The notes: generated by a model not told the origin, from the sequence alone. A stretch of DNA of 64,000 bases from a virus (IMGVR_UViG_3300026549_000060:1-64000), one strand, 5' to 3'; numbered from the stretch's first letter, positions 26,865 through 51,971 are shown. Made by a program: numbers and translations.

Positions 26865-27860
26865 CTACCAACCTATATCATTAGGATCATCAACTTTAAT
26901 CCCAAAGATATCACAAAAATTAGAAATACGATCATCAACTGCAAATTCTTGCATTTTATTATAATTAATTCTAAACTTAGTTAAATCTAATGTACCATTA
27001 GTAGGAATAGTAATACAATCTAACTTACCTTCTTTACCCATTGTACCAGATCGAACTAAATCTGTCAAGCGTCTTTGTGTATCTGAATCAAATTGACCTA
27101 TATCAATTTCTTCCAAGTCAAATCTATAGCCTCTATCCATTACTCTAAAGGTACTTCCATAAATTGCATTATATACCAACATAGATTTAACTGATCTTGG
27201 CAGTCTATCTTGGGCATAGTTTTCTTTATTCCAAGAACTTGGAATAGCACAATAAACTGTACCTGTTTTTAACTGCTCAACATATCTACCTCTATAATCA
27301 TCAATCTTAGTGGTAAGCTCTTCTTTACTGATTCCTTTCTTAAGGATATGCTCAATAAAATCATTTAACATATCTCTGCTAAATTGAGGATAATCAGATC
27401 TTACAACTTCTATACCACTAATACTGATTTTATCCAAAGGCTTTCCTTCTTTGGAAACTAACCAAATAGCATACTTCTTTTTGATTTCCAGAAACAAAGC
27501 TCTTCTAATAACAAGTTCCTGTTTAAAATTAAAGTTAAACTTTTTAGCCGAAGATTCTGTAGGAGATGTATTATGCATATTAAGAAGTTCATGAATCATT
27601 ACATTATTAATATACTGTGCTACAGATTCATTCAATTCAATAACTTTATCTATCTTTTCCTTGTCAGAAATTTCATCATAATCTTTTCCATAAATTGCTT
27701 TCAATGCATCGCCATATTTAGTAAAAATTGAATCTGTATTATGAACTAATATGTCATTTGCAAAAAAACAATGATCATCATCTGGCATTTCAATATCATA
27801 TACATCAATAGGTTCTTCTGGAGTAATCACTTCTATTGATTTAACACTCTCTATCTTCAT
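26865..27860 (-). CDS. Family-B DNA polymerase C-terminal fragment, beginning with a C-terminal split-intein half (IntC about 41 aa; 27738..27860)
   Basis: MKIESVKSIEVITPEEPIDVYDIEMPDDDHCFFANDILVHN is an intein block F/G ending in HN. It is followed by TDSIFTKYGD..., the C-extein that continues pol motif C (YGD|TDS). Confidence 0.8.
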   Translation of the reverse strand: MKIESVKSIEVITPEEPIDVYDIEMPDDDHCFFANDILVHNTDSIFTKYGDALKAIYGKDYDEISDKEKIDKVIELNESVAQYINNVMIHELLNMHNTSPTESSAKKFNFNFKQELVIRRALFLEIKKKYAIWLVSKEGKPLDKISISGIEVVRSDYPQFSRDMLNDFIEHILKKGISKEELTTKIDDYRGRYVEQLKTGTVYCAIPSSWNKENYAQDRLPRSVKSMLVYNAIYGSTFRVMDRGYRFDLEEIDIGQFDSDTQRRLTDLVRSGTMGKEGKLDCITIPTNGTLDLTKFRINYNKMQEFAVDDRISNFCDIFGIKVDDPNDIGW

Positions 27861-27914
27861 TTTCCTTCACCACCCATATAATGATTCTATCAGACTCGGC
27901 ATACTTTGTCAATA

Positions 27915-28540
27915 ATTACACAATATTCTTATTTGTAGGTCCTGTATAGTATGGGCAATACAATACTAATCAGGTATCAATTATACGATATTCTTATTTG
28001 TAAGTCCACATGGTAAAACAATTCCACTACTCCAAAAGCTCATAGTTATACGATACCCTTATTTATAAGTAACGTATAGTGAGTATACCAGAACTGAAAG
28101 AGCACGTCAAGTTATACGATACTCTTTATTTGTAAGTGTCGTATAGTGCTAAAATACTCATGTTTAAAATGTCTGTTATACGATACCCTTATTTGTAAGT
28201 ACCGTATAGTAACATCATTAAATTTCATTTTTACATCACTGTTATACGATACCCTTATTTGTAAGTACCGTATAGTATGTGATGGACCATGCAGGAAGAA
28301 GATAGCGTTATACGATACCCTTATTTGTAAGTACCGTATAGTGATGATGAGGTAATAGCAGTAATAGTTAGAGTTATACGATACCCTTATTTGTAAGTAC
28401 CGTATAGTCACCCAAATCAGCATACTCTTTAATATCATGTTATACGATACCCTTATTTGTAAGTACCGTATAGTTCTTTTTTATCGTCTGTTGTATCTTC
28501 TTTTGTTATACGATACCCTTATTTGTAAGTACCGTATAGT
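27915..28540 (-). CRISPR. CRISPR array with eight conserved 36-bp repeats plus two degenerate terminal repeats
   Basis: Repeat gttatacgatacccttatttgtaagtaccgtatagt at 28045, 28111, 28175, 28241, 28307, 28373, 28439 and 28505. Spacers are 27-30 bp. Degenerate copies lie at 27915-27950 and 27980-28015. The degenerate repeats are distal to the nuclease gene, so I infer transcription on the minus strand from 28541-28750. Confidence 0.85.
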
Positions 28541-28543
28541 ATC

Positions 28544-28640
28544 CTATACGCAAACTCTTACAAATACTGAGTTTATTCAATATTCAGTTGTAAAAAACAG
28601 CATTTTCCATACGTAAAAACAAATAAAAAGTATCGTATCC
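28544..28640 (-). ncRNA. putative tracrRNA-like / leader region carrying two anti-repeat segments
   Basis: ctatacg-caaactc-ttacaaata (28544-28566) is the reverse complement of the repeat's 3' half (tatttgtaag..cgtatag). gtatcgtat (28630-28638) is the reverse complement of the repeat's 5' part (atacgatac). The region lies between the nuclease gene and the array. Confidence 0.35.
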
Positions 28641-28751
28641 GAATAAATCCGGAGGCAGTTAATTTTCATTAACTTTATTTAAATTCACATCGCTGATTCT
28701 GATGATCTTATTTAAATGGGTTTGCCAAACTTACCCAAATACATCCCCTGT

Positions 28752-30236
28752 TTATTTAGGGAATTTAGAATACTTTAGACCTTCAATTACGTCTTTAACT
28801 CTCATCCTAACTGGATGAAATGGATGGTATCCAACCCAACTAAAATCTGGAATTGCTTTTCTCATAATACCCATAGCGCCATTTACATCAGCATTCACCA
28901 ACTTTCCAACCCCAGAAGAAAACAATCCTCTGTGAATTCTTTTACCAAAGTTAGCCTCATCTCTAGTTTCAGGGTCTTCTTTAGTAGCCAAGGGAGCATT
29001 TCTAAGATGATCTGTTTTACTAGTATAAGACTCTTCAACAATCTCGAAGCTTATGCCCCTCATTTTACACTTATATTCGAGTTTGTCAAGTAGTTTTTTA
29101 AAAGGAAAGTTAACAATAATTTGATTATTTTTATGCCCAGTATTGATCTTCTGCTTCATATCTTTATTCCAACCGCAAATAACTCTACAAATATTATAAT
29201 GGAGGCAATATCTAACAATATACTTAGTATATGCATCAACGATATAATTTATACGATTAATATGATTCTTTGTCATTGCTTCAATTCTCTTAGTAGTATA
29301 CTGCTTAGGTCTTTTCTTCCCATTTTCATCAGTAATAACTTCAATCTTATGTTTAAGTTTATCTACCATTAAATGATAAAATCTAATTTTAGATTTCAAA
29401 GCATTACCATCAAGGATAACTGGATTAAGTTTATCATCACTAGTAATTATAGTACAAAAATTTCTAATACCCAAATCAATACTAAGATATCGTTTATTAT
29501 CAAGTTTAGGAACCGATTCATTATACGTATAAATTATTTCAATCTTAAAATATCCTTTTTTAGGAATTATCCTAACTTGGTCAATTCTTTTTCCTTTTAC
29601 ATACTCCGAATTATGTGGCAATTTTTGAAGTGGGATATAAATGCTTTTATTATATCCATCCGTTCCCCTCGGCTTAGGAAACACAAGACTTCTAGTTTTT
29701 GAGTTAATTTTAATAGAAGTACCAGAAAAGTATAATGGGCACAGATCTCCTTTTTTATAAAAACCGGGCTTTCTTGGCATTCCTTTATATTTTTCCGGGT
29801 GCCTACTCCAATCCCCAAGGGATCTTCCATATGATTTTAAATTTTTAGATAGTAATGTTCTAATTACCTCTGTAGTTGCATCTCTACCTACAAGATTTTT
29901 AAGTAGTTCCCAATTACTTTTACCCTCAAGATTTTTAGTATAATACTCACCGTTCTCATCTTGTTCACTGGCATATCTCCTCAAACTCATTACTTTAAAA
30001 AAATCATCGACAGGTTTTTCAAAACCAACGTATTCGTCTGGAAACCAAGGAAAAGACTTACCAGTTTCTTTTTTATATTGTTCTCTAACCGGGTCATAAG
30101 CTTCTTTAAACTCATAAGCATAGTACAGTGTCTGATTATACAAATTCTTAGCAACAGTACATGCTTCTACAAGCCAATCATATACTTCTTCATTTCCAGG
30201 TCTTCTATAAAAGTTAAAACTAGCAGTAAGTTGCAT
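28752..30236 (-). CDS. TnpB/Cas12-like RuvC nuclease (494 aa), the CRISPR-associated effector candidate
   Basis: RuvC-I LSIDLGIRNFCTI, RuvC-II ISFEIVEESYTSKT and RuvC-III NADVNGAMGIMRKA, with a TnpB-like WED region (KGKRIDQVRIIPKKGYFKIEI). No cysteines between RuvC-II and RuvC-III. RBS gaggggg. Confidence 0.8.
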   Translation of the reverse strand: MQLTASFNFYRRPGNEEVYDWLVEACTVAKNLYNQTLYYAYEFKEAYDPVREQYKKETGKSFPWFPDEYVGFEKPVDDFFKVMSLRRYASEQDENGEYYTKNLEGKSNWELLKNLVGRDATTEVIRTLLSKNLKSYGRSLGDWSRHPEKYKGMPRKPGFYKKGDLCPLYFSGTSIKINSKTRSLVFPKPRGTDGYNKSIYIPLQKLPHNSEYVKGKRIDQVRIIPKKGYFKIEIIYTYNESVPKLDNKRYLSIDLGIRNFCTIITSDDKLNPVILDGNALKSKIRFYHLMVDKLKHKIEVITDENGKKRPKQYTTKRIEAMTKNHINRINYIVDAYTKYIVRYCLHYNICRVICGWNKDMKQKINTGHKNNQIIVNFPFKKLLDKLEYKCKMRGISFEIVEESYTSKTDHLRNAPLATKEDPETRDEANFGKRIHRGLFSSGVGKLVNADVNGAMGIMRKAIPDFSWVGYHPFHPVRMRVKDVIEGLKYSKFPK

Positions 30237-30298
30237 TGCCTTGGTTTCCCCCTCAATTGTCTTTTGTTATAACATAACTATACTATATAAAACATTTA

Positions 30299-31408
30299 TC
30301 AAGAGGCTTTATTAAAAACCTTATATCCATTACGAGCTGTCTTATCTTCACATAAGATAATAAATTTAGGATAGCTATTACTATTAAAATAAGTTGCTCT
30401 CTTACAGTGCTTACACGATAAGCACTGAATCATCACTGGTGCCTTTTTCCTTATATGGTAGTCCTGAAATTGTGGGCAAAAATTAACGTTTGATGTAACA
30501 ATCGACCTTGGAAATTCGTTTCTAAAAAATGTCCACTGTCTTGTTAGATCTAATCCATTAAAATTTTTATTTTCTAATATATTCTTAAACTTCTTTTGTT
30601 CCATATATTCTATAATGTCAGTCTCTTTTAAAGCATCTAATCCCTCATCAGTTAGATTGTCATAAAACCTATCTACATACCATTTAACTCCGTTTGTAAC
30701 TCGAAAAGCGTATTCATAAGATCTATCACAAACTAGGTCGCTCTCACCACTTCTATGAATCCAATTGCATGGAATACTGCCGCTTAAGTATGCCTGTTTT
30801 AATTCGTCATATGTAGATTCTCTATTTACTTTAGATAAGTCATACTCTACAACATAAAAATTATTAGTATCTATAGATTTAATTAAATCTAGTTTTACAT
30901 CATCTACTCCATGGGTTACTGTTACTTCAAGATACACGCTACATGGAGAGCTATTAAATCCAAACATTTCCTCATAACTAACATCATAGCATGTCAAATC
31001 GGGTCTAATATATTTCCCATTAGCACAATTTAAATTTTTTTCAAGATAACCCTTATTAAATTTATAAAAATTTGATTCTTTAATCCTAATATATGATGTG
31101 CCCATACTAAGCGTATTAGGATTTATAATATTACCATTCCAATCAATATCTAATTCAGGCATCCTACATAGGCCTGTTTCCATAATAATCTTTTTCATGC
31201 CTAAATGTAAATTAGTCTCTCCATGAACATAAACTGAAGCTGGACATTTACTATTCGGTAAATGTGAAAAATGATGACCAACAATATTACCTTTTTTAGC
31301 TACTAAAGGCTCCCCGCATATAGGGCAGATATAATTATGCAACCCAGACACTACTTCAGAAATATTCTTAATGCTACCGTCTATCAAACAATATTCTAAC
31401 TGAGCCAC
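30299..31408 (-). CDS. CoiA-like protein (competence-protein-CoiA family; nuclease-related)
   Basis: N-terminal YICPICGEPLVAKKGNIVGHHFSH matches the CoiA CPxCx..GxxxxxHFAH motif. Confidence 0.45.
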   Translation of the reverse strand: MAQLEYCLIDGSIKNISEVVSGLHNYICPICGEPLVAKKGNIVGHHFSHLPNSKCPASVYVHGETNLHLGMKKIIMETGLCRMPELDIDWNGNIINPNTLSMGTSYIRIKESNFYKFNKGYLEKNLNCANGKYIRPDLTCYDVSYEEMFGFNSSPCSVYLEVTVTHGVDDVKLDLIKSIDTNNFYVVEYDLSKVNRESTYDELKQAYLSGSIPCNWIHRSGESDLVCDRSYEYAFRVTNGVKWYVDRFYDNLTDEGLDALKETDIIEYMEQKKFKNILENKNFNGLDLTRQWTFFRNEFPRSIVTSNVNFCPQFQDYHIRKKAPVMIQCLSCKHCKRATYFNSNSYPKFIILCEDKTARNGYKVFNKAS

Positions 31409-31460
31409 AGCATATACCCTCTTTTCATTTATAAACTCTAGTTTATAATATATCTAATTA

Positions 31461-32171
31461 TTAAATTTTCTCCTTAGGGCAATCCTTAGTCCTATGCTTT
31501 TCAGTGCATTTTCCAAACCAGCACTTAGGACCACAACCAATAATCAACAAAGGAAACTGATTCTGGAAGATAATATAGATCCTATCAGCCAATTCTCTAA
31601 TACCACTTTGAGCTCTCATACACATTCGCAATTCCATAAAGTGCCTAAGCTCTCTTAGATTCATAGTCATAACCAAAGAAGTCTGAGTAGCATTAGGAAG
31701 AATCTCTCTAGCATCTTCTTTAGGAATTCCATCTTCAATATATGCATTATACAAATCAAATGTATCCTTAAGATGCTGTTCAAACAAAGCCTGTGCATGA
31801 GGATTATTTTTAATTGATTCTGGGATAGTAAACTCTTCAGGTCGCATCGTAGTATATCTTTGACTTCTCTGAGAATAAGAAGCAATCCTATGACGAACAA
31901 GCTGATGGCTAACACTTCTACTAATACCTTCAATAAAAAAGGTAAAATTAGCATGTTCAAGTGGAGATTCATGACCATTTTCCAGAAGCATTTTTACCAT
32001 CTTGTCTTGATACTCTTTATTTAAACACTTCTCTTTCAATTTGTCAAGAGTCAAATCTGAATAACATGTGGCAGCAGCTAAAGTAATTACAAATTCAGGA
32101 TCCTCAGTATTACTAATCAAAGTTACATTCATAATCGTCATCATCCCTTCTGATATCATATTTAAAGTCAT
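31461..32171 (-). CDS. thyX: flavin-dependent thymidylate synthase ThyX
   Basis: ThyX signature RHRIASYSQRS (RHR-X7-S) together with the overall ThyX-like sequence. Confidence 0.8.
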   Translation of the reverse strand: MTLNMISEGMMTIMNVTLISNTEDPEFVITLAAATCYSDLTLDKLKEKCLNKEYQDKMVKMLLENGHESPLEHANFTFFIEGISRSVSHQLVRHRIASYSQRSQRYTTMRPEEFTIPESIKNNPHAQALFEQHLKDTFDLYNAYIEDGIPKEDAREILPNATQTSLVMTMNLRELRHFMELRMCMRAQSGIRELADRIYIIFQNQFPLLIIGCGPKCWFGKCTEKHRTKDCPKEKI

Positions 32172-32544
32172 TACCTAGGTAATCACCATAACTATCATCA
32201 AATTCATCAGTTTCTAGCAAAAACTTATCTGATCTAAAATAAACTTCATCTTTAATGCGTTCTTGTTTATCTTCAATAAAAGAGCACAAATATGGGTCAT
32301 CATCATTAAAATGTCTTACAATTGATTCTAGGATATAATATTGTTTTCTTTGTGAATCATTCATACAATCAATACAAACATCTTCTTCAAAATCTTTTCC
32401 AATATCAGATTCATATAATTTAGTAGCCAGTTCAGCAATACTTTCTACAGTTTTCTTATTAAGATCTGTATGTTTTTGAAGTGCATTATCATCAAACTTA
32501 GCATATTCATTAAGAACATCTTTTTTAGAAATCATCATTATCAC
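32113..32544 (-). CDS. hypothetical acidic protein
   Basis: ORF. Confidence 0.4.
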   Translation of the reverse strand: MIMMISKKDVLNEYAKFDDNALQKHTDLNKKTVESIAELATKLYESDIGKDFEEDVCIDCMNDSQRKQYYILESIVRHFNDDDPYLCSFIEDKQERIKDEVYFRSDKFLLETDEFDDSYGDYLGNDFKYDIRRDDDDYECNFD

Positions 32545-33205
32545 CTCTGCTCATTTGTGAAAAAACATCAGCCATCCCATCATCATAATGACCTTCCAAA
32601 AGGTCAATAGCTCTATCAACAGCTTTTTGATCTTTAATATCTCTACTAACTTCAGTTAATACTGCACAAGCTTTTTGAATTATTTCATCATCATATTGAT
32701 GAGAAGTTATTTCGTGGAAATATTTATTTGATCTACTAACAAATTTAATCAGTGTATTCTCATTAAACTTTTTAGATTTAATTTTAGTAACTGGATCAAT
32801 AAGGCTTTTATAAACTTTAATAAAAAATTCTTTATCAATAGGGCCTTCTACAATAGGTTCTATAGGTTTATTAAAAGTACCATCTTTCTTTTTCTGCTCA
32901 ATAATCTGCTCTTCAGTATGATTCTCTAGAATATACTGAATTCTAGCTTCAAGTCTTTTTCTAAGAGTAGGATCTTTAGGAACATTTTCCTGAATAGCTC
33001 TAAGAATACAAATCTCTTTAATTTGCTTAGGTAAGTACTTTTTATCTTCAGGCATATTTGGAAGTGTTTCTGGATTCTGAAGATATTCATTTCCTTTAGC
33101 AGTCATAGCTCTAATAACTGGTCCTTGGAGTTTAGTAGAGGTTACCTGGGCAATCTGATTAAATTTTCTATAGTGTGACAATACATTACCTTGTGTTACT
33201 TGCAT
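32525..33205 (-). CDS. hypothetical protein
   Basis: ORF. Confidence 0.4.
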   Translation of the reverse strand: MQVTQGNVLSHYRKFNQIAQVTSTKLQGPVIRAMTAKGNEYLQNPETLPNMPEDKKYLPKQIKEICILRAIQENVPKDPTLRKRLEARIQYILENHTEEQIIEQKKKDGTFNKPIEPIVEGPIDKEFFIKVYKSLIDPVTKIKSKKFNENTLIKFVSRSNKYFHEITSHQYDDEIIQKACAVLTEVSRDIKDQKAVDRAIDLLEGHYDDGMADVFSQMSRGDNDDF

Positions 33206-33531
33206 TCACATTCCCTGCCTTTTAAAATGATAGACATATTGTCATAAGCAGAATCCAGAATTAATCCCAAATCATGTATATATGCAGCTATACATTCTTC
33301 AAAAGCTTTATAGATACTAACTTCTTTTTTACGTTGATCAGATAATTTAAAAAAATTATCCAGTTCAGTTTGATCAAGATTTTTAGGATTCTCAAGAAAT
33401 CTATTAGCATAATCCACAATATCTTGTATCAATTCTTTTGGGAGATGATCTCTAGTAGTTATAGAAGATTCATTATCTGAATCATAATTACAATATACCC
33501 ATTCATCAATAACGTCATCTCTGGTTATCAA
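33196..33531 (-). CDS. hypothetical protein
   Basis: ORF. Confidence 0.4.
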   Translation of the reverse strand: MITRDDVIDEWVYCNYDSDNESSITTRDHLPKELIQDIVDYANRFLENPKNLDQTELDNFFKLSDQRKKEVSIYKAFEECIAAYIHDLGLILDSAYDNMSIILKGRECECK

Positions 33532-33694
33532 TATAAGTATCTCCTTCTAATATCCTCATTTACCCAATTCTTTCTAAACCAAGTATCATCATCTAAATGA
33601 ACCTTATCATATTCACACAGCTTATTCCAAATAGATTGGATAATCAACAGCTCTTTCTCAGTCTTACATGGCATAAAATCAAATAGTAATTGTG

Positions 33695-34075
33695 TCATCG
33701 TTCTGTAAGGGGTCGTTCTGTATAAAAGTTAGAAGTATTTTCTGATTTAATAACTCTAACTGCATCATCATAAGTTTTATCTTTAAAGTATTTCTTATAT
33801 TTTTCCATTTTCTGTTCAAGTTCACCAGGTCTAAGTCTAACTTCTTTTTGATTAACAAATACCTTAGGCTTAAGAGTAGCTCTATCAACTACAATAATAT
33901 ATGATGGAATTTTATCGCTAGGAAGTTTCTGAATAGCTTCTTTCAAAGCTTCATAATGTGCTTTTACTCCAAATTCAGAATATGGTTTATAGATATCCTC
34001 AGCAATTCTGCTGTCCATTCCAAAATACATAACATCAAAATGACCTGCACCAGTAACTACTTTTGTTTCAGACAT
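33695..34075 (-). CDS. hypothetical protein
   Basis: ORF. Confidence 0.4.
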   Translation of the reverse strand: MSETKVVTGAGHFDVMYFGMDSRIAEDIYKPYSEFGVKAHYEALKEAIQKLPSDKIPSYIIVVDRATLKPKVFVNQKEVRLRPGELEQKMEKYKKYFKDKTYDDAVRVIKSENTSNFYTERPLTER

Positions 34076-34154
34076 TTAATCATTGCTCCTTTCAATTTTA
34101 TATAAGGAGTATATCAGAAAATCAAAGCCATGTCAATATAAAAAATCTCTGAGA

Positions 34155-34781
34155 TCAAGAGACCTCAGAGATTTGTTTATTTTCATTAGCATCTTCTTTT
34201 TTAGTGGTTGCTTTTTTTCTTTTAGCCTTTGTTACAGGAGCTGCTAATGGTTCTGGTGCTGATTTCATTTTCATTGCTAATTCTTCCATAGTAGGTAATG
34301 GCTTTTTAGGCATCTTAGGCTTCTTAGGAGCTTGTCTATCTAAGGCAGCCATTTCAGCTTCCAATTGTTTAACTTGTTCGTCAATACCTACTACCTCAGG
34401 AAACATTTCTTCACTAGATTTAGTTCTAGAGATTCCCTTTGGAAGTTTTTCTTCTTCTTTTTTAATAGCATCTTTTTGAGATGTCCAGGTAGGATCGAAA
34501 GGATTACTATTCTTAGAAGTAATAGCTCTGACACCAGAAGTAAGTTTTTCTACTGGCTTAGGTGACTCCTCCTCAATACTAAATGATGAGAAATCTTCTA
34601 CTGGTTCATCCTTAACACTAAGTGTATTAAAATCTAATGGAGATGTAGTAGTAGCTTCAGCTAAAAACTGTTTAAACCTTTTATTCATCAGATCAACTTT
34701 TTTAGCCAATTTCATCTGATTAGTAGCTATTACTTTCATAAGCTCCATTATATTTTTTGACACTGAGTTCATCAAAATCAC
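34155..34781 (-). CDS. hypothetical Lys-rich protein
   Basis: ORF. Confidence 0.4.
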   Translation of the reverse strand: MILMNSVSKNIMELMKVIATNQMKLAKKVDLMNKRFKQFLAEATTTSPLDFNTLSVKDEPVEDFSSFSIEEESPKPVEKLTSGVRAITSKNSNPFDPTWTSQKDAIKKEEEKLPKGISRTKSSEEMFPEVVGIDEQVKQLEAEMAALDRQAPKKPKMPKKPLPTMEELAMKMKSAPEPLAAPVTKAKRKKATTKKEDANENKQISEVS

Positions 34782-35113
34782 TCAGCTTTCTTTTTCTTAG
34801 GAGGTCTACCTCTTTTTCTCTTAACTGGAGCAGGAGGAGTAACCTCTTCCTTAACTTCTTCAACAACAGGTTTTTCAACAGGTTTTTCAACAGGCTTTTC
34901 AGCAGGTTGTTCTTTGACCTCTTCAGTCTTAGTCTGCTTACTAGCAGCCTCTGCTTCAAAATCCTCTTTTGTTTTAATTGGAAACTTGTAAATATGTCCT
35001 TTATCATTAGTTCCAATCAAAACACTATCATTACTAAGCGGAGCTTCAGCCAAACCCATTCTTCTGCAAATTTCCAAAGCTTCAGCTCTGGTATATTTTT
35101 TCAAATTAGCCAA
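34778..35113 (-). CDS. AT-hook DNA-binding protein with PVEK tandem repeats
   Basis: C-terminal KRKRGRPPKKKK (GRP AT-hook core). PVEKPVEKPVEKP is encoded by a 15-bp triple repeat at about 34864-34905. Confidence 0.45.
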   Translation of the reverse strand: MANLKKYTRAEALEICRRMGLAEAPLSNDSVLIGTNDKGHIYKFPIKTKEDFEAEAASKQTKTEEVKEQPAEKPVEKPVEKPVVEEVKEEVTPPAPVKRKRGRPPKKKKAE

Positions 35114-35143
35114 TTAGATCTTCCTTTCTATTATAGTTTATTT

Positions 35144-35683
35144 TTATAAAGTCCAACTCTTTAAAGTATTGGCAAACCAAACTTCACCATTTGGAGTAAA
35201 CATGTCCACGATATCAACACTATTATTACCAGAAGTACCTGGCTCAATACCATTCATCCAAACAACTGAATCAGGCCAAGTAATCCCTTTAGAAGGATTC
35301 TTAATAATCACTTTGATATGCCTTGCTAAAGTACTTCTGTTATTAGTAATTGATGCATCTGTAGGCACATCCAAAATAGATATTGTAACCGAACCAGCTA
35401 ATACTAAATAAAACATATCATAATTGTTAGTATTCAACTGGATAGAACCCATAGCGTTCTCATCTATAGAACACATTCTAAAGCCAGCAAGTCTATTAAT
35501 ATCTGCTAAGGTAGTAGGTCTGGCATCATTACTAACAGTTAAATTAGCCAATTCATGTGTATGATTTCTAAACTGACTAGCAGACACTTTCTCATTAAGT
35601 TCCTGAGTAATCTTTGTCTCCAATTGATTATGGTATCTCTGTAGGTTTTCAAAAGTTACTAAATTATCACTCATAATAATCAT
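35144..35683 (-). CDS. hypothetical protein
   Basis: ORF. Confidence 0.4.
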   Translation of the reverse strand: MIIMSDNLVTFENLQRYHNQLETKITQELNEKVSASQFRNHTHELANLTVSNDARPTTLADINRLAGFRMCSIDENAMGSIQLNTNNYDMFYLVLAGSVTISILDVPTDASITNNRSTLARHIKVIIKNPSKGITWPDSVVWMNGIEPGTSGNNSVDIVDMFTPNGEVWFANTLKSWTL

Positions 35684-35693
35684 TCTCCTTTCC

Positions 35694-38273
35694 TTATAAG
35701 GTGATTAGTTGGTCTGTTACAACTAATTCTGTTGGTTTAATTATAGTTTTAACATTATTTCTCATTACTACCAAACTATGATCTTCAGTTACAGTGACTG
35801 TTTTTCCAGATTCAGTAGTAATCTTATACAGTTTCTTATTAGTTTTATGCTTCATCAGATACCTTGGGAAATAAAGTCTGTCATCATATCCAAGTACGCA
35901 TTTATTAGGATTCTGAATATAATTTTTTCCGAGATAATGCCACACTTTATTATCCGAAGCACACATATCCCAAAGTTCTTTAATAGTTATATTACCTTTA
36001 CCAGTTCTGATTAAAGAATCTCCAGTAACTGAATCTCCATAAATTACATTTGGTAGAGCTTGTTCTGATTGGTAATCCCAATCAAAAGGAATATCTACAT
36101 GGTCAAATTTATTAGATTTATTTTGAATCATTTGATTAATGCAATTATTAGCAACTACTGCGGCGATTTTAGCAATTTCTCTACCAGTAGAAGTAATACT
36201 TCTGGCAACCTCATAATCATACAATCTGAATCTAATATTGGACTGACCACCATAAAGAGAATTAGTAATGATCTTAACTGTTTTCTGCATAGTATCATAT
36301 CTGTCAACTAGCATTTGGTCTTTACCAATATTATCCTTCATAAGATCTTTATACTCTTTTCTCTTTTTAATGAGCATATCTACAATATCATAAAGAACTG
36401 ACTGCTTATCTTCATGCTTCTTAAAGATAGTGCCAATCTGGGTAATAATATACCCATTCTTAAGCATTCTTTCATGAAAACTTTTAGCAGACAATTTATA
36501 CAATCTCTCAATACCTTGAACTTTCAAATACAAACTTACATCTGTATTGGAATTAACAAATTCTTCTTTATTAAAGATATATTGTCTAGCAGTATCTGTA
36601 TCAACTTTTCCTACATAGGTATCTGCACTAATGTTATATCTTGCCATAATGTATGGATAAAGAGAAGTAAGATCCAAATCACCCAACCAATCATGTACAC
36701 CGCTAATTGGTTCTCTAACATAAGCACCCGCAAACTTTTTCTTCTCAATTCCAGCTTTAACAATTTTGGCTACTTTATCTCTATCCATAAGATACTCATA
36801 AAGAATCCCATCACAAATATGTAGAGTAGTATAAATACTATCCCATGAGATATTAGCCAACTGGACTATACTAAAATTAAGGTCAATATACTTCAACTTT
36901 TCATCCAATTTTCTTACAAGATGAACGTCGTTAATATTGTATGCAATAAACCTTTCAGGTTCTTCCCTAAAGATTTTATCCATGCCATCTTCAGTATCAA
37001 GTTTAGTAATACCCAACTCAATTTTAGAAATAGTTCCAAGCTTATAATTCTCTTTTTTACCAAGAGTTCTTTCCTTATAGCATCTTTGATAATCAAGTGC
37101 TACAGAATAACCAATATGAGGAATACAATAAGTAACTTCCTCTTCATGTTTATTCATAACTGTTTTATATTCAATTTCAAAAGTTTTATTATGAGCCAGT
37201 TTAGGATGTTCAATTCCTAAAAATTCTGCTCTATACTTAATATAAGGTAAATCAAATTCATCACTATTCCACCCAGATACTAGATCTGGATCAAATTCTT
37301 TCAATAAACTGAAGAACTTAAGGAACATATCACTTTCTTTATCAAAGATTTCTACATTGAAAATACACTCATCTTTGTAATCAAGATATTCCTTAATTTG
37401 TTCAGTATTAATTTTAGCTTTGTTTAAATTATAGACCAAAGTATAATATTTGTCAGTATAATTATCATACAAAGTAATCAAGTTAACGGGAATAACTCTA
37501 GCTGACTTCTTAATATCAGCAAAGTCAATAATACCATATCCTTCTTGATACAACTCAATATCAACATAATTTACTCTAAGTTTATAATGACCAAGATTAT
37601 CTTTGTTTTCTTTTTTCCAAAGATAATTCTTATGAATAGCCAAATTAAAATCTACATTATAAATAGCTTTATAAGAAGATTCTGACTGAATTTGTTCAAT
37701 AATGTATTTTCTTTTACCATAATGTACCAGTTCACCTTTTAATCCTGCAATATCATGAACATCTAAATAATCATCTTTACCGGTATACATCATAACCATA
37801 TCATCAGTCTGAGTAATATATCTTTTATCACCAACTCTAATAACATATGCAAATTCCTTATTCACATAGTCTGAATAGAAGTTAAACAGCATAGGCTTAG
37901 AATACCCATCAGTTGGCTTAGAATCTTCTTTCTCTTTAGAGCTATACAATTTATATTTACTCTTTTTATTAATAACTACATCAGTTTCTTTCTTTTTAGG
38001 TTTTTCTTCAATTTTGGGAAACACGGGTTTAACAGGAATATAATTAAACTTATAAATAGTGTTATACTTCTTATGTACTTTAGCAATATCTTCAATAGAA
38101 TACTTATACGCATAAGGATTATTGAAAAGCTGATTCAATACAATAGATGTTTCAAAATCTTCTTCAGCTAAACTTAAAATAGAGGAAATCTTAAGAGACT
38201 TACATTCCTCTGGAAATGGCACATTTCCTTCAGTAGCTAACCATCTTATATATGTAGTTAGTGGTGAAGCCAT
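35694..38273 (-). CDS. Family-B DNA polymerase N-terminal fragment (3'-5' exonuclease and polymerase motifs A, B and the YGD of C), ending in an N-terminal split-intein half (IntN about 112 aa; 35697..36032)
   Basis: Motifs YVDIE, YNINDVHL, GAYVREP, DLTSLYPY (motif A) and KIITNSLYG (motif B), then ...NVIYGD|SVTGDSLIRTGKG (intein block A) ... TVTEDHSLVV (block B TxxH) and a stop. Confidence 0.85.
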   Translation of the reverse strand: MASPLTTYIRWLATEGNVPFPEECKSLKISSILSLAEEDFETSIVLNQLFNNPYAYKYSIEDIAKVHKKYNTIYKFNYIPVKPVFPKIEEKPKKKETDVVINKKSKYKLYSSKEKEDSKPTDGYSKPMLFNFYSDYVNKEFAYVIRVGDKRYITQTDDMVMMYTGKDDYLDVHDIAGLKGELVHYGKRKYIIEQIQSESSYKAIYNVDFNLAIHKNYLWKKENKDNLGHYKLRVNYVDIELYQEGYGIIDFADIKKSARVIPVNLITLYDNYTDKYYTLVYNLNKAKINTEQIKEYLDYKDECIFNVEIFDKESDMFLKFFSLLKEFDPDLVSGWNSDEFDLPYIKYRAEFLGIEHPKLAHNKTFEIEYKTVMNKHEEEVTYCIPHIGYSVALDYQRCYKERTLGKKENYKLGTISKIELGITKLDTEDGMDKIFREEPERFIAYNINDVHLVRKLDEKLKYIDLNFSIVQLANISWDSIYTTLHICDGILYEYLMDRDKVAKIVKAGIEKKKFAGAYVREPISGVHDWLGDLDLTSLYPYIMARYNISADTYVGKVDTDTARQYIFNKEEFVNSNTDVSLYLKVQGIERLYKLSAKSFHERMLKNGYIITQIGTIFKKHEDKQSVLYDIVDMLIKKRKEYKDLMKDNIGKDQMLVDRYDTMQKTVKIITNSLYGGQSNIRFRLYDYEVARSITSTGREIAKIAAVVANNCINQMIQNKSNKFDHVDIPFDWDYQSEQALPNVIYGDSVTGDSLIRTGKGNITIKELWDMCASDNKVWHYLGKNYIQNPNKCVLGYDDRLYFPRYLMKHKTNKKLYKITTESGKTVTVTEDHSLVVMRNNVKTIIKPTELVVTDQLITL

Positions 38274-46157: not shown

Positions 46158-46235
46158 TGGTCGGGTATGGAGGATTTGAACCTCCGACCCTCTGCTCCCA
46201 AAGCAGATACGCTAACCAGACTGCGCTAATACCCG
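46158..46235 (-). tRNA. tRNA-Pro (anticodon TGG), CCA encoded
   Basis: Manual fold: acceptor cgggtat/atacccg, anticodon stem tctgc/gcaga, loop tttggga, T-arm ggagg-ttcaaat-cctcc. Confidence 0.75.
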
Positions 46236-46240
46236 TTTAG

Positions 46241-46777
46241 TTACTCTTTAAAATACAAATCCCCAGTTTTATCTCCATCAATCTTATGCAGAAATACCCA
46301 ATCTAAAAACTCACAAGCAGTAGATCTTTCTTCTTCAGAACAATCACTACCATTAATATACTCATCAAACCATTTATAAAACAGTTTCTTTCTATTGAAA
46401 GTTGCATTAATACAACTACTAAGCATATCCAAGTCAATATCTTTAAGATCTGTTTTACCGGCGTTTTTCATTACAGCTTCAATAGTTTCCCTGATAGCCT
46501 TAACATTTTCTGGCTGATAATAACGTTCGGCATTATTAGTCACATTTTCACATTTATTTATAGTCATATTCATATTTGTTATCCCACTTTCTTTATATTG
46601 GTAATAATGATTGGGATACTTAAAGACCAAAACTCTAGCTTTATAGGGAGAGGTTTGATCTCTATCCCAATAAACTAGTTCCATTTCTAAAAGCTTTCTA
46701 GCTTCAAATGGAGTAATCTTGACACTATCTTTTTTAAACTCTGAATCAAATAACTTAATTGTTTTCTCCATACTCAT
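46241..46777 (-). CDS. hypothetical protein
   Basis: ORF. Confidence 0.45.
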   Translation of the reverse strand: MSMEKTIKLFDSEFKKDSVKITPFEARKLLEMELVYWDRDQTSPYKARVLVFKYPNHYYQYKESGITNMNMTINKCENVTNNAERYYQPENVKAIRETIEAVMKNAGKTDLKDIDLDMLSSCINATFNRKKLFYKWFDEYINGSDCSEEERSTACEFLDWVFLHKIDGDKTGDLYFKE

Positions 46778-47078
46778 TATGGGTAGTCTCCTTTATATAA
46801 GGGTGATTGTCTCTGCTTTTTTAATCAAGAAAAAACAGGTCAAAAAGAAAAGGTTTGAGGGGAATTTCACCCCTCTGAGAGGTATTAAATTTTAAACTAA
46901 AAAGCCATAGGAATATACGCAGCTTTATAAGTCTGTTGCTTAGTTGATCAGTATCTAAGCTATCTGGAAGATGCGAAGACCTATGGTTAATTCTTTAAAA
47001 GGCTATAGGAATATCAGTACTCAAATGATCAGTTTAAGTAGTCTATCTGATAGACCTATAGTCAATGCTTATCTATTA

Positions 47079-47687
47079 TTAGGGCCACTCACCAAGAGGC
47101 TGTCCAAGAAGACCCTGCTGAGGAACCCCTTCAAGAATCTCCTTGAATTCAATCTTATCGTAATTGGAATACACACTGATAAGAACAACCCTGTTAGGAT
47201 TACCCTTAGTCATAGCCTCAGGAGAAAGCACCATCTCTGTTTCACCAGCAAAGACGTACTTCACACCATTGACAACCTGTGTACCAATAAGTGCAAAAAC
47301 TGAAACATTACTACCAACAAATCCAGCAAGATTATCCTCAAGAACCTTCATGGCCTCTTCAGGAATATCAGTAGTAGGATTAATCTGAACCCCACCCATC
47401 TTACCAGAGTCAGACAGGACATTGGTAATCTCCACAATACTGAACTTATCATCCTTCTCATTAAGAACAATAAGAACCACATTATGAACATCATTTCCAG
47501 TAATCATGGTCTGTGTAGCAAGAATAGCATGATTAACTCCAGAAACAACCTTACTACCAAGGTATGCAATCACATTATACTCAGCACCAACCATATTACC
47601 AAAAATCTCTGTAAATGCGGAAGCAACCTTCTGAGGAAGCTTACCGGGAACAACATGAATCTCATAACTACCCAACATAAATATCAT
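47079..47687 (-). CDS. hypothetical protein with two internal repeats of an approximately 85-aa domain, in a GC-elevated (about 42%) region
   Basis: Repeated ...AFTEIFGNMVGAEYNVIAYLGSKVVSGVNHA... / ...EDNLAGFVGSNVSVFALIGTQVVNGVKYV... Confidence 0.45.
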   Translation of the reverse strand: MIFMLGSYEIHVVPGKLPQKVASAFTEIFGNMVGAEYNVIAYLGSKVVSGVNHAILATQTMITGNDVHNVVLIVLNEKDDKFSIVEITNVLSDSGKMGGVQINPTTDIPEEAMKVLEDNLAGFVGSNVSVFALIGTQVVNGVKYVFAGETEMVLSPEAMTKGNPNRVVLISVYSNYDKIEFKEILEGVPQQGLLGQPLGEWP

Positions 47688-48207
47688 ATCCTTTCTTATT
47701 TATTTTTATCAAAAATAAAAGCTTTTATCAACATTACAATTATAAAAATTATAACTACGTATTGTATATATGGCAATAACTTTATTGAACTATCAAATAC
47801 TCCTGATAACCAGGAAAAGAATACATCAAACATACAATGTATGCACTACCAAGTTATGTTTAGTAGTATCTACTTTCTGTGGATAAGGATCTTCATTATT
47901 CTTAAATCTCTGATACTGAAGATCTTTATACTCCTTCTTCTTCACCATTGTTCTAGTACCTGTACTGTCTTCTGTAAAATACCATTCAGTCATGTTATAC
48001 ATCAATCCTTTCTTAAGGCATATCAACTTCGTCTACATAAAGAACAATTTCCTCATTACCATAGCTATCACCAGTTGCTGAAATACTTGATTCATCATAA
48101 AGTTGCTGAACTGAATCAAAATAGCTCTCAGAAACCTCAACTCTATGCCCTTCATCAGTTTTAAGATAGTATTTAGCAGACATATTAACTACACCCTTTC
48201 TTTTCTT

Positions 48208-49044
48208 TTATGTTACTGTAAATGTTTTTGAAATATCGTATTGTTCGTTCTGCCACCACGCATCCATTCCTACTCGAAAGTCTATACGGACTGTATGTTC
48301 ACCAACATCACTTACAGAGGCAGGGTCTGGAGCTGTCCAACTTCCAGAAGCAGTTAAACTATTATAAGTCTGAGAATATACCCGATTTTCATCATAGTAT
48401 AAAGTTATAGAATTAAGTTGATATCTAGTTTGTTGAACTGTATACGGAACAAAATCCCATTCAACATATGCACTTTCACCAACCGATATATTATTAACCC
48501 TTAACACCATACCCTTGTATCTGCCTTCACCTTCTCTATACGAAATATCAACGGTCCTTACGTTATCATTGTTGTCTTCTCTAACATAGGTGTTAAACAA
48601 ATCTATTATACGATTATAACAGCTATCTGCCGGTCTACTTGATAAATAAATACTATAAAATGAATCTTCACCATAATCATAATAGGTTAAAGTTTCTCCG
48701 TCATAATTAAATGTTTGATCGATATATGGAAAATAAATAGAAAAAGAGCCTAAATGGGCTATGTCAGGATCAGAGCAATATGCTCTTAGTTCAAACCATC
48801 CCATATCGGGAGGAGTATTATAATAAGGATCGTCTCCATTGCCATATGTACCGTAAGCTGACGCAGCTGGTTTACCAATTAAACGATCATTTATAACTAA
48901 AACAATTTTAAATTTTTCAGATTTATTTTTAATAACAAACCCAACACTAATAGTCGAATCATAAGTTTGTGCTTCCGCAAAGGTCATTCTGTATATCTTA
49001 TACTCATCTTTCCCCCCATTCAACAAAAGAGGTTTTGTAAACAT
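48208..49044 (-). CDS. hypothetical protein
   Basis: ORF. Confidence 0.45.
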   Translation of the reverse strand: MFTKPLLLNGGKDEYKIYRMTFAEAQTYDSTISVGFVIKNKSEKFKIVLVINDRLIGKPAASAYGTYGNGDDPYYNTPPDMGWFELRAYCSDPDIAHLGSFSIYFPYIDQTFNYDGETLTYYDYGEDSFYSIYLSSRPADSCYNRIIDLFNTYVREDNNDNVRTVDISYREGEGRYKGMVLRVNNISVGESAYVEWDFVPYTVQQTRYQLNSITLYYDENRVYSQTYNSLTASGSWTAPDPASVSDVGEHTVRIDFRVGMDAWWQNEQYDISKTFTVT

Positions 49045-49113
49045 TGATAAACACTCCTTTTATAAGTTTTATATTTGTAAGAACTAGGTAAACTAGTTTA
49101 AAAGTCAAAGGTA

Positions 49114-49189
49114 TGGTGGACTCGCTGGGGTATGATCCCAGAACCTGGCGATTATAAGTCGCCTACTCTACCAATTGAGCTACAAGTCC
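49114..49189 (-). tRNA. tRNA-Ile (anticodon TAT), CCA encoded, with a non-canonical T-loop
   Basis: Acceptor ggacttg/cgagtcc, anticodon stem ggcga/tcgcc, loop cttataa, T-stem ctggg/cccag with loop atcatac (A54/T58 covariation). Confidence 0.65.
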
Positions 49190-49198
49190 ATGTAATAA

Positions 49199-49285
49199 TG
49201 GTGCCCAGGGGGGGACTCGAACCCCCACGCCAGAGATGGCAAGGGATTTTAAGTCCCTTGTGTCTACCTATTCCACCACCTGGGC
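49199..49285 (-). tRNA. tRNA-Leu (anticodon TAA), class II long variable arm, CCA encoded
   Basis: Anticodon stem aggga/tccct, loop cttaaaa, variable arm gccatctctggcgt, T-loop ttcgagt. Confidence 0.7.
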
Positions 49286-49307
49286 ATTTAACTATTTTTA
49301 TATTTTA

Positions 49308-49384
49308 TGGAGCCCCTAGGAAAAGAGTTGAACTTCCATCACTTCTTTACAAGAGAAGTATAATAGCCGTTATACTATAGGGGC
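49308..49384 (-). tRNA. tRNA-like gene, possibly tRNA-Thr (TGT) or a pseudo-tRNA
   Basis: Acceptor gccccta/taggggc plus tCCA. Anticodon stem cttct/agaag with loop cttgtaa. The T-arm is irregular (ggaag-ttcaact-cttttcc, with G-U pairs or extra bases). Confidence 0.4.
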
Positions 49385-49553
49385 AAATAAATCTTATTTG
49401 TAGTCTACATCACTCAAAAGATTTAGGAAAGTTCTATACTATATTTTACTTCTGATTAACAGAGAGTGCTCCATCCTTAGCTATAGTATAGATAGATGGT
49501 TAAAAGGTGTAGATCTTTCAATAACTACTTACTGAAGACCTTTATCCAGGAAA

Positions 49554-49582
49554 ATTATATCAGCAGTATAGTTATTTGTCAA
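49554..49582 (-). promoter_or_regulatory. sigma70-type promoter (TTGACA-N17-TATAAT) driving the tRNA cluster
   Basis: Minus strand: tacTTGACAaataactatactgctgaTATAAT. Confidence 0.55.
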
Positions 49583-50043
49583 GTACAAAACTGACTCACT
49601 TATTTATATGATCTACATGACCCTAAGAATAGGTCATTTGTGTAGTACTTTCGATGACTTTAATGGGCGTAATATATGTACTACAATCCTTTTCCCCTTT
49701 CAATCAAAGGATGACAGTTTCTTACCACTTGCAGTAACCTGACAACTCTCCGGAATCCTCCACTCAACACTGCTCTAGCTTCTACTAAAGGTGGCTCAAC
49801 ATTAAGTTTCATAGGATAACTACTACCTCAAGTGTAGTAGGTTCTAACAGTTTTTATAAAGTCTATCCCTTAGCCAAGGTAATTTTTATTGAGGGTTACA
49901 TTCCCTAATAGACTTCTATCCTACTTATGCCAAATGAAGACATTACAATCTTCTAAGTAGATCAGCCTTTATTTACTGTTATTTCCCAAGCACTGATTTG
50001 GGTGAAAGGATTTTAATTGTAACTCATTTTAGGTTACAATTTA

Positions 50044-50117
50044 ATTTTTAATGGCTCCTCCTGGTGGTTACGCTCCACCGTATACGGTTTAACAGACCGC
50101 CACTCTACTATTGAGTT
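50044..50117 (-). tRNA. tRNA-Asn (anticodon GTT), CCA encoded, with a non-canonical T-loop
   Basis: Acceptor tcctcct/aggagga, D-arm actc/gagt, anticodon stem gcggt/accgt with loop ctgttaa, T-stem ggtgg/ccacc with loop agcgtaa (A54/T58). Confidence 0.55.
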
Positions 50118-50133
50118 AAGGAGGAATTAGAAC

Positions 50134-50228
50134 TGGCTCTGGAGCCCCGATTCGAACGAGGATGAGAAAGGAGGTCCCTTTACTTACTGATCCAAAGTCA
50201 GCTGTTTTTCCAATTAAACTACTCCAGA
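50134..50228 (-). tRNA. tRNA-like gene with a Gln anticodon (TTG) and an unusually long (about 24-nt) variable region, CCA encoded
   Basis: Acceptor tctggag/ctccaga + g + cca. D-arm gttt/aaac. Anticodon stem gctga/tcagt with loop ctttgga. T-arm cctcg-ttcgaat-cgggg. The 95-nt length is atypical. Confidence 0.45.
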
Positions 50229-50372
50229 GTTAAATTATCAAGGGTTCACTTAAGACTCGCACTTAAGATCTTCAGCTTTCACATTTTCCTAATTATGCTC
50301 TAGAAGCATACATAGAAAACACTACTCAGTGAGATTTTGCTATTTAAACTATGAACCATGTCCAACAAAGAT

Positions 50373-50401
50373 ATTAAAGCATACTGACAAGAATTTGTCA
50401 A
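50373..50401 (-). promoter_or_regulatory. sigma70-type promoter (TTGACA-N17-TTTAAT) upstream of the Gln-like and Asn tRNAs
   Basis: Minus strand: cTTGACAaattcttgtcagtatgcTTTAAT. Confidence 0.4.
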
Positions 50402-51093
50402 GAGGTGATTTTAAAAATTTTATGGCAGGTCCACTACCGCTTGCAGATAGTTCTGAAGTTTTGGAGACTCCTGTTTTACTACATAAACTATGGACCCATC
50501 AATATTTGTTCAAAAAATTTTAGGTGTGGAGAGAAGTAATGAGGTACTCCTCCCCACTTCAAAGGAGAACGATCATGAGCGGAAAAATATATAGATACTT
50601 GATAGCTGTGAGGTATGTTCAGACTCAGACTCTGTTTAAATAGTACAGACCTTTATTCACAGATTTACATAATAATTACCAGCTACTTACTATTAGCGAA
50701 CGAGTTTACGTTATATTAAAGCTAATGTGATTTCACTAAGTAAATCTTAAGTGAGGTTCGACCAAGCCTCTTCATAGGGTCTAACTACTAAATCAACAAT
50801 ACTAACTACTCCCTACTCAGTAAAGTCTTACTCAATCCAAGATAAAATAGTCATCAATCAAAGACTATTATTTGAAATTAGATGTAAGGCTTTCTAGTCT
50901 CAGGAAAATTGAGAGAAAAGCATTGTTATTATATCGTCACATTTCAGGTGTGAAAATATAATTAGATAACTTTGCGGTCATCTAAATATTAGGAGAGTAT
51001 CTTTCTTATTTTTACATGAATAAGATACTCAGAAAATCATGAAACAGAGTATTTAGAACTTTCACCAAGTATCAAATCTTTAAGTACTAAAAC

Positions 51094-51762: not shown

Positions 51763-51770
51763 ATAATAGT

Positions 51771-51912
51771 TTTTACTTAACTCTCTTAAAATAAACTACA
51801 ACACCAGCAATAATAACAAGCAAAGCTACAAGAACTGCACTGGAAGTAATAGGATTAGCAGCTACAGTATTCTTAGCAGCGGTAAGCCAAGTAAACGCAT
51901 AATTCAACATGT
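51771..51912 (-). CDS. small hydrophobic (TM) protein, about 43 aa, not in the supplied ORF track
   Basis: RBS aggagg followed by an ATG. MLNYAFTWLTAAKNTVAANPITSSAVLVALLVIIAGVVVYFKRVK. Confidence 0.4.
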
Positions 51913-51971
51913 TTAAATTCCTCCTCATAATAAATACTAAGTCTATAAACTCTTACTAATACTACTTTAGT

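Follow-up and report, generated by a model that had tools for sequence, protein, structure and literature searches.

A phage family-B DNA polymerase gene divided inside motif C by a naturally split pol-c intein

How does a phage obtain a working replicative polymerase when its catalytic motif C is shared between two genes that lie 7.8 kb apart? The question is raised by a 64,000-nucleotide (nt) stretch of viral DNA, IMGVR_UViG_3300026549_000060:1-64000 (below, the window, meaning this whole stretch), in which a family-B DNA polymerase (PolB) is encoded by two open reading frames (ORFs), each fused to one part of an intein. Our answer, to which we give a probability of roughly 0.88, is that a gp43-like replicative PolB is produced from two collinear genes on the same strand and rejoined by trans-splicing of a split intein. 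The two genes and their parts, with lengths in amino acids (aa), are as follows.

35694..38273, minus strand: PolB N half, an ORF of 859 aa with its TAA stop at 35694..35696
36033..38273, minus strand: PolB N-extein, residues 1-747; Pfam DNA_pol_B_exo1 and DNA_pol_B; collinear with RB69 gp43 (PDB 1clq)
35694..36032 (coding 35697..36032), minus strand: N-intein (IntN), residues 748-859, 112 aa plus the TAA stop; NCBIfam intein_Nterm and alignment
26865..27860, minus strand: PolB C half, an ORF of 331 aa
27738..27860, minus strand: C-intein (IntC), residues 1-41, with its own ATG; NCBIfam intein_Cterm and conservation in 23 C halves
26865..27737, minus strand: PolB C-extein, residues 42-331, with a TAG stop; Pfam DNA_pol_B positions 231-354, RB69 gp43 residues 704-812

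Anatomy and proposed chemistry of the split intein

The N-extein comprises an N-terminal region, a 3'-5' exonuclease domain and the palm, with motif A (DLTSLYP) at residue 534 and motif B (KIITNSLYG) at residue 667, and it ends in ...NVIYGD, the first half of motif C. IntN opens with SVTGDSLIR, contains TVTEDHSLVV and runs to the stop codon, from which 7,833 nt lead to the start of the C half. The first 41 residues of the C half end in ...HCFFANDILVHN (also given as ...DDDHCFFANDILVHN). The C-extein opens at residue 42 with TDSIFTKYGD..., in which the TDS beginning at Thr+1 forms the second half of motif C, and it bears a KKKYA (KxY) motif and the thumb. The Pfam DNA_pol_B profile is covered at positions 39-232 by the N half and 231-354 by the C half, and the Intein_splicing profile at positions 8-93 and 121-155, respectively; the halves are therefore complementary. 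The product spliced in silico has 1,037 aa, keeps YGDTDS intact and is collinear with RB69 gp43 on either side of motif C. By profile and alignment, the polymerase is thus a family-B enzyme of the T4/RB69 gp43-like kind.

The first-pass annotation, made from the DNA alone, had described a family-B polymerase in these two ORFs, with the exonuclease motifs, motifs A and B and an intein piece of about 112 aa in one, a piece of about 41 aa and the polymerase remainder in the other, and a gap of about 7.8 kb between them. Every part of this description holds, residue-exact and on the minus strand, and the family assignment is upheld by Pfam and by the RB69 gp43 alignment. It had also located the break inside motif C at the pol-c insertion site. 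The window reads VIYGD/.../TDSIF (a slash marks the insertion point), which matches the definition of the pol-c intein allele as YGD/TDS, the point at which Nanoarchaeum PolB is split and Mimivirus PolB carries a contiguous intein (PMC549080).

Checked against intein hidden Markov models, both halves passed the curated thresholds. The joined intein matched Pfam Intein_splicing at 53.8 bits (cut-off 35.8), the native N-half ORF matched NCBIfam intein_Nterm TIGR01445 at 39.5 bits (cut-off 24.5), and the native C-half ORF matched NCBIfam intein_Cterm TIGR01443 at 22.4 bits (cut-off 15.6). Chance would not give such scores together with profile coverage that is complementary between the halves. 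Ser1 (Ser748 of the N half, 36030..36032) directly follows ...YGD. Further along, IntN has the Lys-His of the NX motif within MKHK (intein residues 60-63) and the block B T-E-D-H at intein residues 82-85. IntC contains block F as VYDIE...DDDHCFFAN and block G as ILVHN, with the penultimate His40 and the terminal Asn41.

We aligned eleven inteins: those of six clade members (the window and related loci, which carry L numbers below), the split inteins of PA5oct, PTm1, CP21 and Aes123, and the cis-splicing intein of SCTP-2. The -1 Asp, Ser1, the NX-motif His, the block B Thr, Asp and Ser, the block F VYD and the terminal Asn are invariant among them, and the block B His and the penultimate His nearly so. 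Across 23 aligned C halves, IntC residues Y21, D22, A34, N35, I37, L38, V39, H40 and N41 do not vary. T42, the +1 Thr, is invariant in 18 C halves of the clade, and the +1 residue is Thr in all six clade members with N halves. Loss of catalytic residues, a concern of the first-pass annotation, is excluded, all catalytic positions being conserved in the alignment.

The Lys/Arg-His NX motif is specific to Ser1 inteins and critical in them (Pasch et al., PMC10189870). Together with Ser1 and Thr+1, its presence is characteristic of the cysteine-less (oxyester) subgroup. The window intein has three non-catalytic Cys residues, which are not conserved; L006 has none. We considered a class 3 intein on account of the block F Cys. 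This residue is Asn, Thr or Met in relatives, where Ser1 is invariant, and because the block F Cys is not conserved, we assign the intein to class 1. The halves, at 112 and 41 aa, have the size split that the first-pass annotation had recognised from known trans-splicing inteins; this puts the break in the canonical loop for endonuclease insertion, like that of Aes123 PolB1 (120/39 aa, PMC11923092). A separate stop and start, a break at this loop, halves of the expected size (about 100-120 and 35-45 aa) and selection on both of them are what is found in naturally split inteins. Altogether, the sequence supports a class 1, cysteine-less (Ser1/Thr+1), naturally split intein at the pol-c site YGD/TDS.

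The best match of the joined intein among solved structures was PDB 9hth, an Aes123-type PolB intein (E=1.5e-15), followed by gp41-1, PolB16 and NrdJ-1, which are naturally split and of phage or metagenomic origin. IntN carries a net charge of +6 and IntC of -9, the same polarity as in Aes123 (+8/-11) and PTm1 (+8/-14), and these charges are consistent with the electrostatic capture step of split inteins (PMC11923092). The ratio of nonsynonymous to synonymous substitution rates (dN/dS) was 0.17-0.27 for IntN, 0.28 for IntC and 0.10-0.22 for the exteins, values that are rough since dS is near saturation. To judge from these ratios, both intein halves are under purifying selection.

The C half also appears to have its own expression signals.

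27884..27912, minus strand: sigma-70-like promoter, TTGACA-17-TAGAAT with an upstream TG (extended -10); scanner match 11/12

This promoter-like site lies about 50 nt before the PolB-C ATG and is followed by a GAAGGA ribosome-binding site. Equivalent -50 sites occur in L005 (TTGACC-17-TATAAT) and L006 (TTGACA-16-TATAAT) despite unrelated upstream DNA, which suggests that the C half is driven by an independent promoter.

We propose that the upstream gene would make the exonuclease and the palm up to the first motif C Asp (YGD), fused to the basic 112-aa N-intein, and that the downstream gene, probably from its own promoter, would make the acidic 41-aa C-intein fused to the remainder of the enzyme from TDS onwards. 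After translation, the intein fragments would associate and fold into one HINT domain. Class 1 protein trans-splicing would then proceed through oxyester intermediates, with an N-O acyl shift at Ser1, trans-esterification to Thr+1, cyclisation of Asn41 and an O-N shift. The expected output is a 1,037-aa polymerase with YGDTDS intact and the junction peptide FDHVDIPFDWDYQSEQALPNVIYGDTDSIFTK, together with the released intein halves. Homology to characterised inteins gives us high confidence in this scheme. We infer that the window pair is spliced and, since each of the two polypeptides carries only one of the catalytic motif C aspartates, that polymerase activity depends on this splicing.

Several points weigh against this conclusion. 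The block B His is replaced by Glu in one relative, L022; at least one Ser1 intein can do without this His (PMC10189870). The near-saturated dS limits what the dN/dS ratios can say, and a single-sequence AlphaFold2 model of the joined intein was uninformative, with a predicted local distance difference test score (pLDDT) of 42. Promoter-like matches are no commoner in the region than in shuffled sequence, so that the site before the C half is a consensus match only. Finally, the finding that no second polymerase occurs covers the large ORFs of a 64-kb window out of a genome of >200 kb.

The best-surviving alternative, which we nevertheless consider improbable, is that the two halves assemble non-covalently into an active polymerase without splicing and that the intein halves are a dimerisation module only. 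Functional split PolBs that lack inteins are indeed documented, namely gp43A/gp43B of some T4-like Aeromonas phages and Methanothermobacter PolB (cited in PMC2677866). Aes123-type phages likewise split gp43 at an intein-less point, and the absence of the block B His from L022 would fit a module that merely associates. However, conservation extends to every residue on which catalysis, and not just association, depends: Ser1, the NX His and TxxH in IntN, the penultimate His and terminal Asn in IntC, and Thr+1. Motif C is broken between its two catalytic aspartates, where a retained 153-aa HINT domain would sit in the active site, and close homologues do splice (PMC11923092).

The split among relatives

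A different possibility is that the pair is a decaying, non-functional polymerase gene in a phage replicated by another polymerase. The window shows 64 kb of a genome larger than 200 kb, and some jumbo phages (SCTP-2) carry PolB together with PolA-like genes, so a second enzyme is conceivable. Nonetheless, we regard decay as very unlikely: dN/dS is 0.10-0.22 in the exteins and 0.17-0.28 in the intein halves, the polymerase and exonuclease motifs are all intact, no other polymerase is present among the large window ORFs, and the gene pair persists over a deep clade.

The depth of this clade is apparent from several comparisons. The polymerase is broken at the same residue in L005, L006, L020, L022 and L018, whose C halves are 81%, 69%, 54%, 42% and 39% identical to that of the window. 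In the six N halves, IntN measures 112-125 aa with the same split point, and the corresponding IntC pieces measure 40-43 aa; the N halves of the relatives end ...D(Q/K)(L/I/V)I..stop. A database search gave 26 C-half clusters (308-347 aa, 39-99% identity), and the 18 that were aligned all open with IntC followed by HN/TDSIF. A word-index protein search with the final 308 residues of the N half found only short proteins consisting of a PolB fragment and IntN; it missed even known 859-aa relatives and therefore carries no information about unsplit close relatives. L017 has ThyX and PolB-C, and its N half is found neither in the 4.9 kb upstream (to the contig end) nor in the 10 kb downstream. Seventeen contigs carry the exact C-half protein of the window; the longest of them measures between 0.2 and 1 Mb, and we therefore regard the source as a jumbo phage.

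The same data bear on whether the split is an assembly artefact, in which a chimeric contig or a collapsed repeat has parted a contiguous intein-containing polB. A repeat array in the gap does break short-read assemblies: many contigs start inside it, and L007 has five fewer repeat units. Yet two independent assemblies from different samples, Logan SRR7971122 and JGI 3300039431, show one and the same gene order (N half, cargo, C half) with 100% protein identity, and relatives of 39-81% identity are split at the same residue around different gap contents. In addition, IntN has a genuine stop, and IntC starts with an ATG that is preceded by a ribosome-binding site and a promoter-like site. Misassembly, which the first-pass annotation had named as one threat to its proposal, is therefore excluded for practical purposes, since independent assemblies agree and relatives share the split down to 39% identity.

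There is scarcely any chance, either, that the IntN 'stop' is recoded via a suppressor tRNA(CUA) and the protein continues. The window does encode a tRNA with a CTA anticodon (50242..50335), and TAG is the stop codon used least there. However, the IntN stop is TAA, and the frame beyond it is interrupted by numerous stops, TAA, TAG and TGA alike, and encodes neither intein nor endonuclease sequence; tRNA(CUA) could therefore not read through.

This tRNA belongs to a cluster of 7-8 tRNA genes on the minus strand (46158-52069). It is of the suppressor type, reading UAG, and adjoins tRNA-Gln(TTG); the two genes, of about 94 nt each, are unusually long. The 46 large window ORFs end in TAA (30), TGA (12) or TAG (4). 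The CTA tRNA and the scarcity of TAG may point to amber recoding of some genes. Amber recoding has been reported for Lak and crAss-like phages.

Queried by megablast, 50,697 phage records gave zero matches to the 13-kb region, and by this comparison the phage is one without a close cultured relative. Most large window ORFs, ten in number (278-657 aa), had no Pfam match, and eight of these, scanned also against PHROGs, gave zero matches there. The lineage looks like a poorly sampled group of jumbo phages: relatives lie on contigs of 218-275 kb, the guanine-cytosine content is about 31%, and the coding strand switches near 56 kb. The N halves of L018 (983-4312), L022 (772-4056) and L026 (5172-8462) are about 1,100 aa long, roughly 240 aa longer than that of the window. 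In L018 the extra N-terminal portion matches a uracil-DNA glycosylase domain, which the 859-aa N half of the window lacks. More distant viral contigs (L034:9489-11299, also L035 and L036) are split at YGD/TDS with the halves about 30 nt apart; there the IntN-bearing piece has only 154 aa, indicating a PolB cut into more than two genes.

Known inteins at motif C

A split-intein PolB is of a kind already known in phages. PTm1, PTm5, Aes508, Aes516 and AS-gz carry the annotation 'intein-containing split DNA polymerase precursor', and the split PolB of jumbo phage MIJ3 (MIJ3/PA5oct) was described in 2019 (PMC6892783). Aes123 PolB1 has been shown to trans-splice in vitro, and CP21 PolB1, LCGC14 PolB2 and GOM-OPS-1 PolB2 have been assayed for splicing as well, with LCGC14 efficient (PMC11923092, PMC12707363). 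The first-pass annotation had called a phage polymerase that needs trans-splicing rare. Such polymerases are indeed uncommon, a related IntN being found in 47 of the 50,697 phage records, but as a claim of novelty the statement does not stand, since others have been annotated, described and characterised. The annotation had also likened the intein to cyanobacterial DnaE and Nanoarchaeum inteins. The insertion site is the same as in Nanoarchaeum, but the closest relatives in sequence are phage PolB inteins and not DnaE.

The inteins of the Aes123 PolB1 type (Aes123/Aes508, CP21, PTm1 and PA5oct/MIJ3, with Aeromonas, Campylobacter, Tenacibaculum and Pseudomonas as hosts; PDB 9hth) share with the window intein the same host protein and the same target, motif C. 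Both have Ser1, the Lys/Arg-His of the NX motif, a VTEDHS-like block B, an ILVHN block G, a break at the endonuclease loop, halves of about 115-120 and 39-43 aa, a basic IntN and an acidic IntC, and intein identity is 34-38%. They differ in position, being inserted as DTD/S with Ser+1, whereas the window intein sits two codons upstream, as YGD/TDS with Thr+1, and so does not belong to the Aes123 PolB1 allele. The junctions that we read, in Aes123, CP21, PTm1, PA5oct and an uncultured phage, L016, are all DTD/S with an endonuclease gene directly between the halves. The gene in Aes123 PolB1-type loci is a Vsr-like or 'Hef-like' homing endonuclease gene (HEG); the window has no such match, but 12 unrelated genes and an array over 7.8 kb.

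The Nanoarchaeum equitans polymerase (Neq Pol) is also naturally split at pol-c, with halves that are not adjacent in the genome (PMC549080, PMC2677866). It comes from an archaeal hyperthermophile and its halves occupy the unrelated loci NEQ068 and NEQ528, whereas those of the window are collinear, share a strand and enclose a conserved set of genes. The 21 PDB matches of the intein at E<=1 include no Neq-like chain, and the similarity in sequence is thus not close. The chemistry of Neq Pol is Ser1/Thr+1.

Contiguous pol-c inteins (Mimivirus PolB, archaeal Pol-c alleles such as PI-PkoII, and SCTP-2) occupy the same YGD/TDS point (PMC549080). Each of these is made as one polypeptide and splices in cis, some having an endonuclease domain and others not, whereas the HINT domain in the window is divided between two genes. 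The mini-intein of Salicola phage SCTP-2, IIYGD/SVTHD...NILLKN/TDSSY, is 33% identical to the window intein, which is thus about equally similar (33-38%) to the DTD/S inteins and to this YGD/TDS intein. We infer that the D-T-D-S pseudo-repeat of motif C gives two equivalent insertion points, each with an Asp before it (-1) and a hydroxyl residue after it (+1), and that related inteins have taken both. Homologous inteins would then sit at two points two codons apart in one motif.

New here are the pol-c/Thr+1 allele in an uncultured jumbo-phage clade, the absence of a HEG and a cargo-filled gap that usually includes ThyX. The find leaves the understanding of how split inteins work unchanged; it is a good example, not one to surprise a specialist. 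Cysteine-less split inteins are nevertheless scarce and sought after, the recent literature calling them rare and counting only two highly efficient ones. The clade supplies natural Ser1/Thr+1 candidates, more than 20 in number, at a site unexploited so far among mesophilic cysteine-less inteins, and these may be orthogonal to the Aes123/CLm and LCGC14 inteins, which would be of use in protein engineering.

The region between the halves

All window genes between the halves share the strand of the polymerase. From PolB-N towards PolB-C they are as follows.

32113..35683, minus strand: eight small ORFs, function unassigned (143, 226, 111, 56, 126, 208, 111 and 179 aa), directly downstream of PolB-N
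31461..32171, minus strand: ThyX, flavin-dependent thymidylate synthase; Pfam Thy1, E=3e-67
30299..31408, minus strand: 369-aa protein with a CoiA_N-like zinc-ribbon N-terminus; Pfam CoiA_N, E=9.6e-11
28752..30236, minus strand: 494-aa TnpB-family protein, a candidate miniature Cas12-like RNA-guided nuclease; NCBIfam guided_TnpB, 112.9 bits (cut-off 100)
28541..28751, minus strand: leader of 210 nt between the effector gene and the array; inverted partial repeat copies
27915..28540, minus strand: CRISPR-like array with the 36-nt repeat ACTATACGGTACTTACAAATAAGGGTATCGTATAAC; repeat analysis

ThyX is the usual inner gene near PolB-C and lies between the halves in L005, L006, L018, L020, L022, L025 and L028. 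Homologues of five of the eight small ORFs (179, 111, 208, 126 and 56 aa) are found at the corresponding place in L005, and of four of these in L006 as well. The slot just upstream of PolB-C is hypervariable: it holds five reverse-strand ORFs in L006, a 269-aa ORF in L005, a 275-aa reverse-strand ORF in L022 and, in the window, the CoiA_N-like gene and the TnpB-family gene with its CRISPR-like array. The 369-aa CoiA_N-like protein adjoins the TnpB-like gene, is absent from L005 and L006 and is confined to the window lineage; it has no second recognisable domain and is possibly a nuclease. The gap measures about 30 nt with zero genes in L034, 1.3 kb in L018, 3.7-6.7 kb in others and 7.8 kb in the window. 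In L026 it measures 1.5 kb and contains three reverse-strand ORFs without ThyX.

We compared the four gap proteins that have no counterpart in L005 or L006 (the CoiA-like protein and those of 143, 226 and 111 aa) with the HEGs that lie between the PolB halves of PA5oct, L016, Aes123, PTm1 and CP21. These HEGs are related to one another, and none of the four proteins matched the Vsr-like/'Hef-like' family; the best score, for the CoiA-like ORF, was E=0.18. In the 'fractured genes' model of Dassa et al. (2009), a free-standing endonuclease arises and is then lost, and the halves uncouple (PMC2677866). The fractured genes described there likewise have a split intein in a replication or nucleotide-metabolism gene of phage origin, with the halves collinear on one strand, but they are defined by a free-standing HEG directly between the halves, where the window has ThyX and variable cargo. 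A gap without a HEG but with ThyX and cargo corresponds to the later, uncoupling step of the model.

Following this route, a contiguous pol-c intein may have lost or expelled its endonuclease, and the space between the halves would then have become a slot for cargo (ThyX and variable genes). In the window lineage the gap would have reached 7.8 kb by insertion of the CoiA-like gene and the TnpB-like/CRISPR cassette. The window, and with it a whole clade, provides a well-supported natural example of the step that the model predicts after endonuclease loss, in which the halves of an essential gene remain collinear yet drift apart as unrelated genes accumulate, with gaps from 0.03 to 7.8 kb among relatives.

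A more speculative idea, which we think doubtful, is that the space between the halves of an essential, trans-spliced polymerase gene has become a protected cargo locus. Genes placed there would be co-inherited in phage recombination because both flanks are needed for replication. ThyX is retained there in most of the clade members examined, and the slot on the PolB-C side turns over fast, taking up reverse-strand small ORFs, HNH genes and swappable TnpB-like/CRISPR cassettes. A separate promoter for the C half could also allow the timing of polymerase assembly.

In two relatives, the ThyX gene between or beside the PolB halves is itself intein-bearing: in L017 (2894-4480; 528 aa, an Intein_splicing match) and in L023 (2726-4501; 591 aa, a faint LAGLIDADG_3 match), where an HNH_3 gene adjoins it. 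The intein-bearing ThyX and the HNH_3 gene suggest that the inter-half region attracts mobile elements.

The cassette next to PolB-C (27915-30236, minus strand) resembles a phage-encoded miniature type V-like CRISPR system lying between the polymerase halves; no cas1, cas2 or cas4 was seen with it. The 494-aa protein also matches Pfam Cas12f1-like_TNB and, weakly, Cas12u3/Cas12f in PADLOC. It has no sequence-level homologue among solved structures (PDB), and its gene is absent from L005 and L006. The array has six identical hairpin repeats with 30-nt spacers, followed by about four decaying copies toward PolB-C. Three array spacers were without an exact match in the viral collection, and none of the loci retrieved contained a target for them. 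In the leader, a 20-nt stretch (28619..28638) matches the repeat in reverse at 95% identity, and a similar anti-repeat occurs in the leader of L024; these inverted repeat copies are candidate anti-repeats of a trans-activating CRISPR RNA (tracrRNA). Only five close relatives of the effector were found (52-99% identity, 460-495 aa), beyond which identity falls to about 36%, to ordinary TnpBs of ~410 aa. In L024 (1432-3660), the same slot is taken by an effector of 52% identity whose repeat differs (period 61), and L023 (6001-7488) has a 77%-identical effector. The flanks of L023 and L024 are 93-95% identical; near-identical flanks around differing effectors suggest that the cassettes are swapped.

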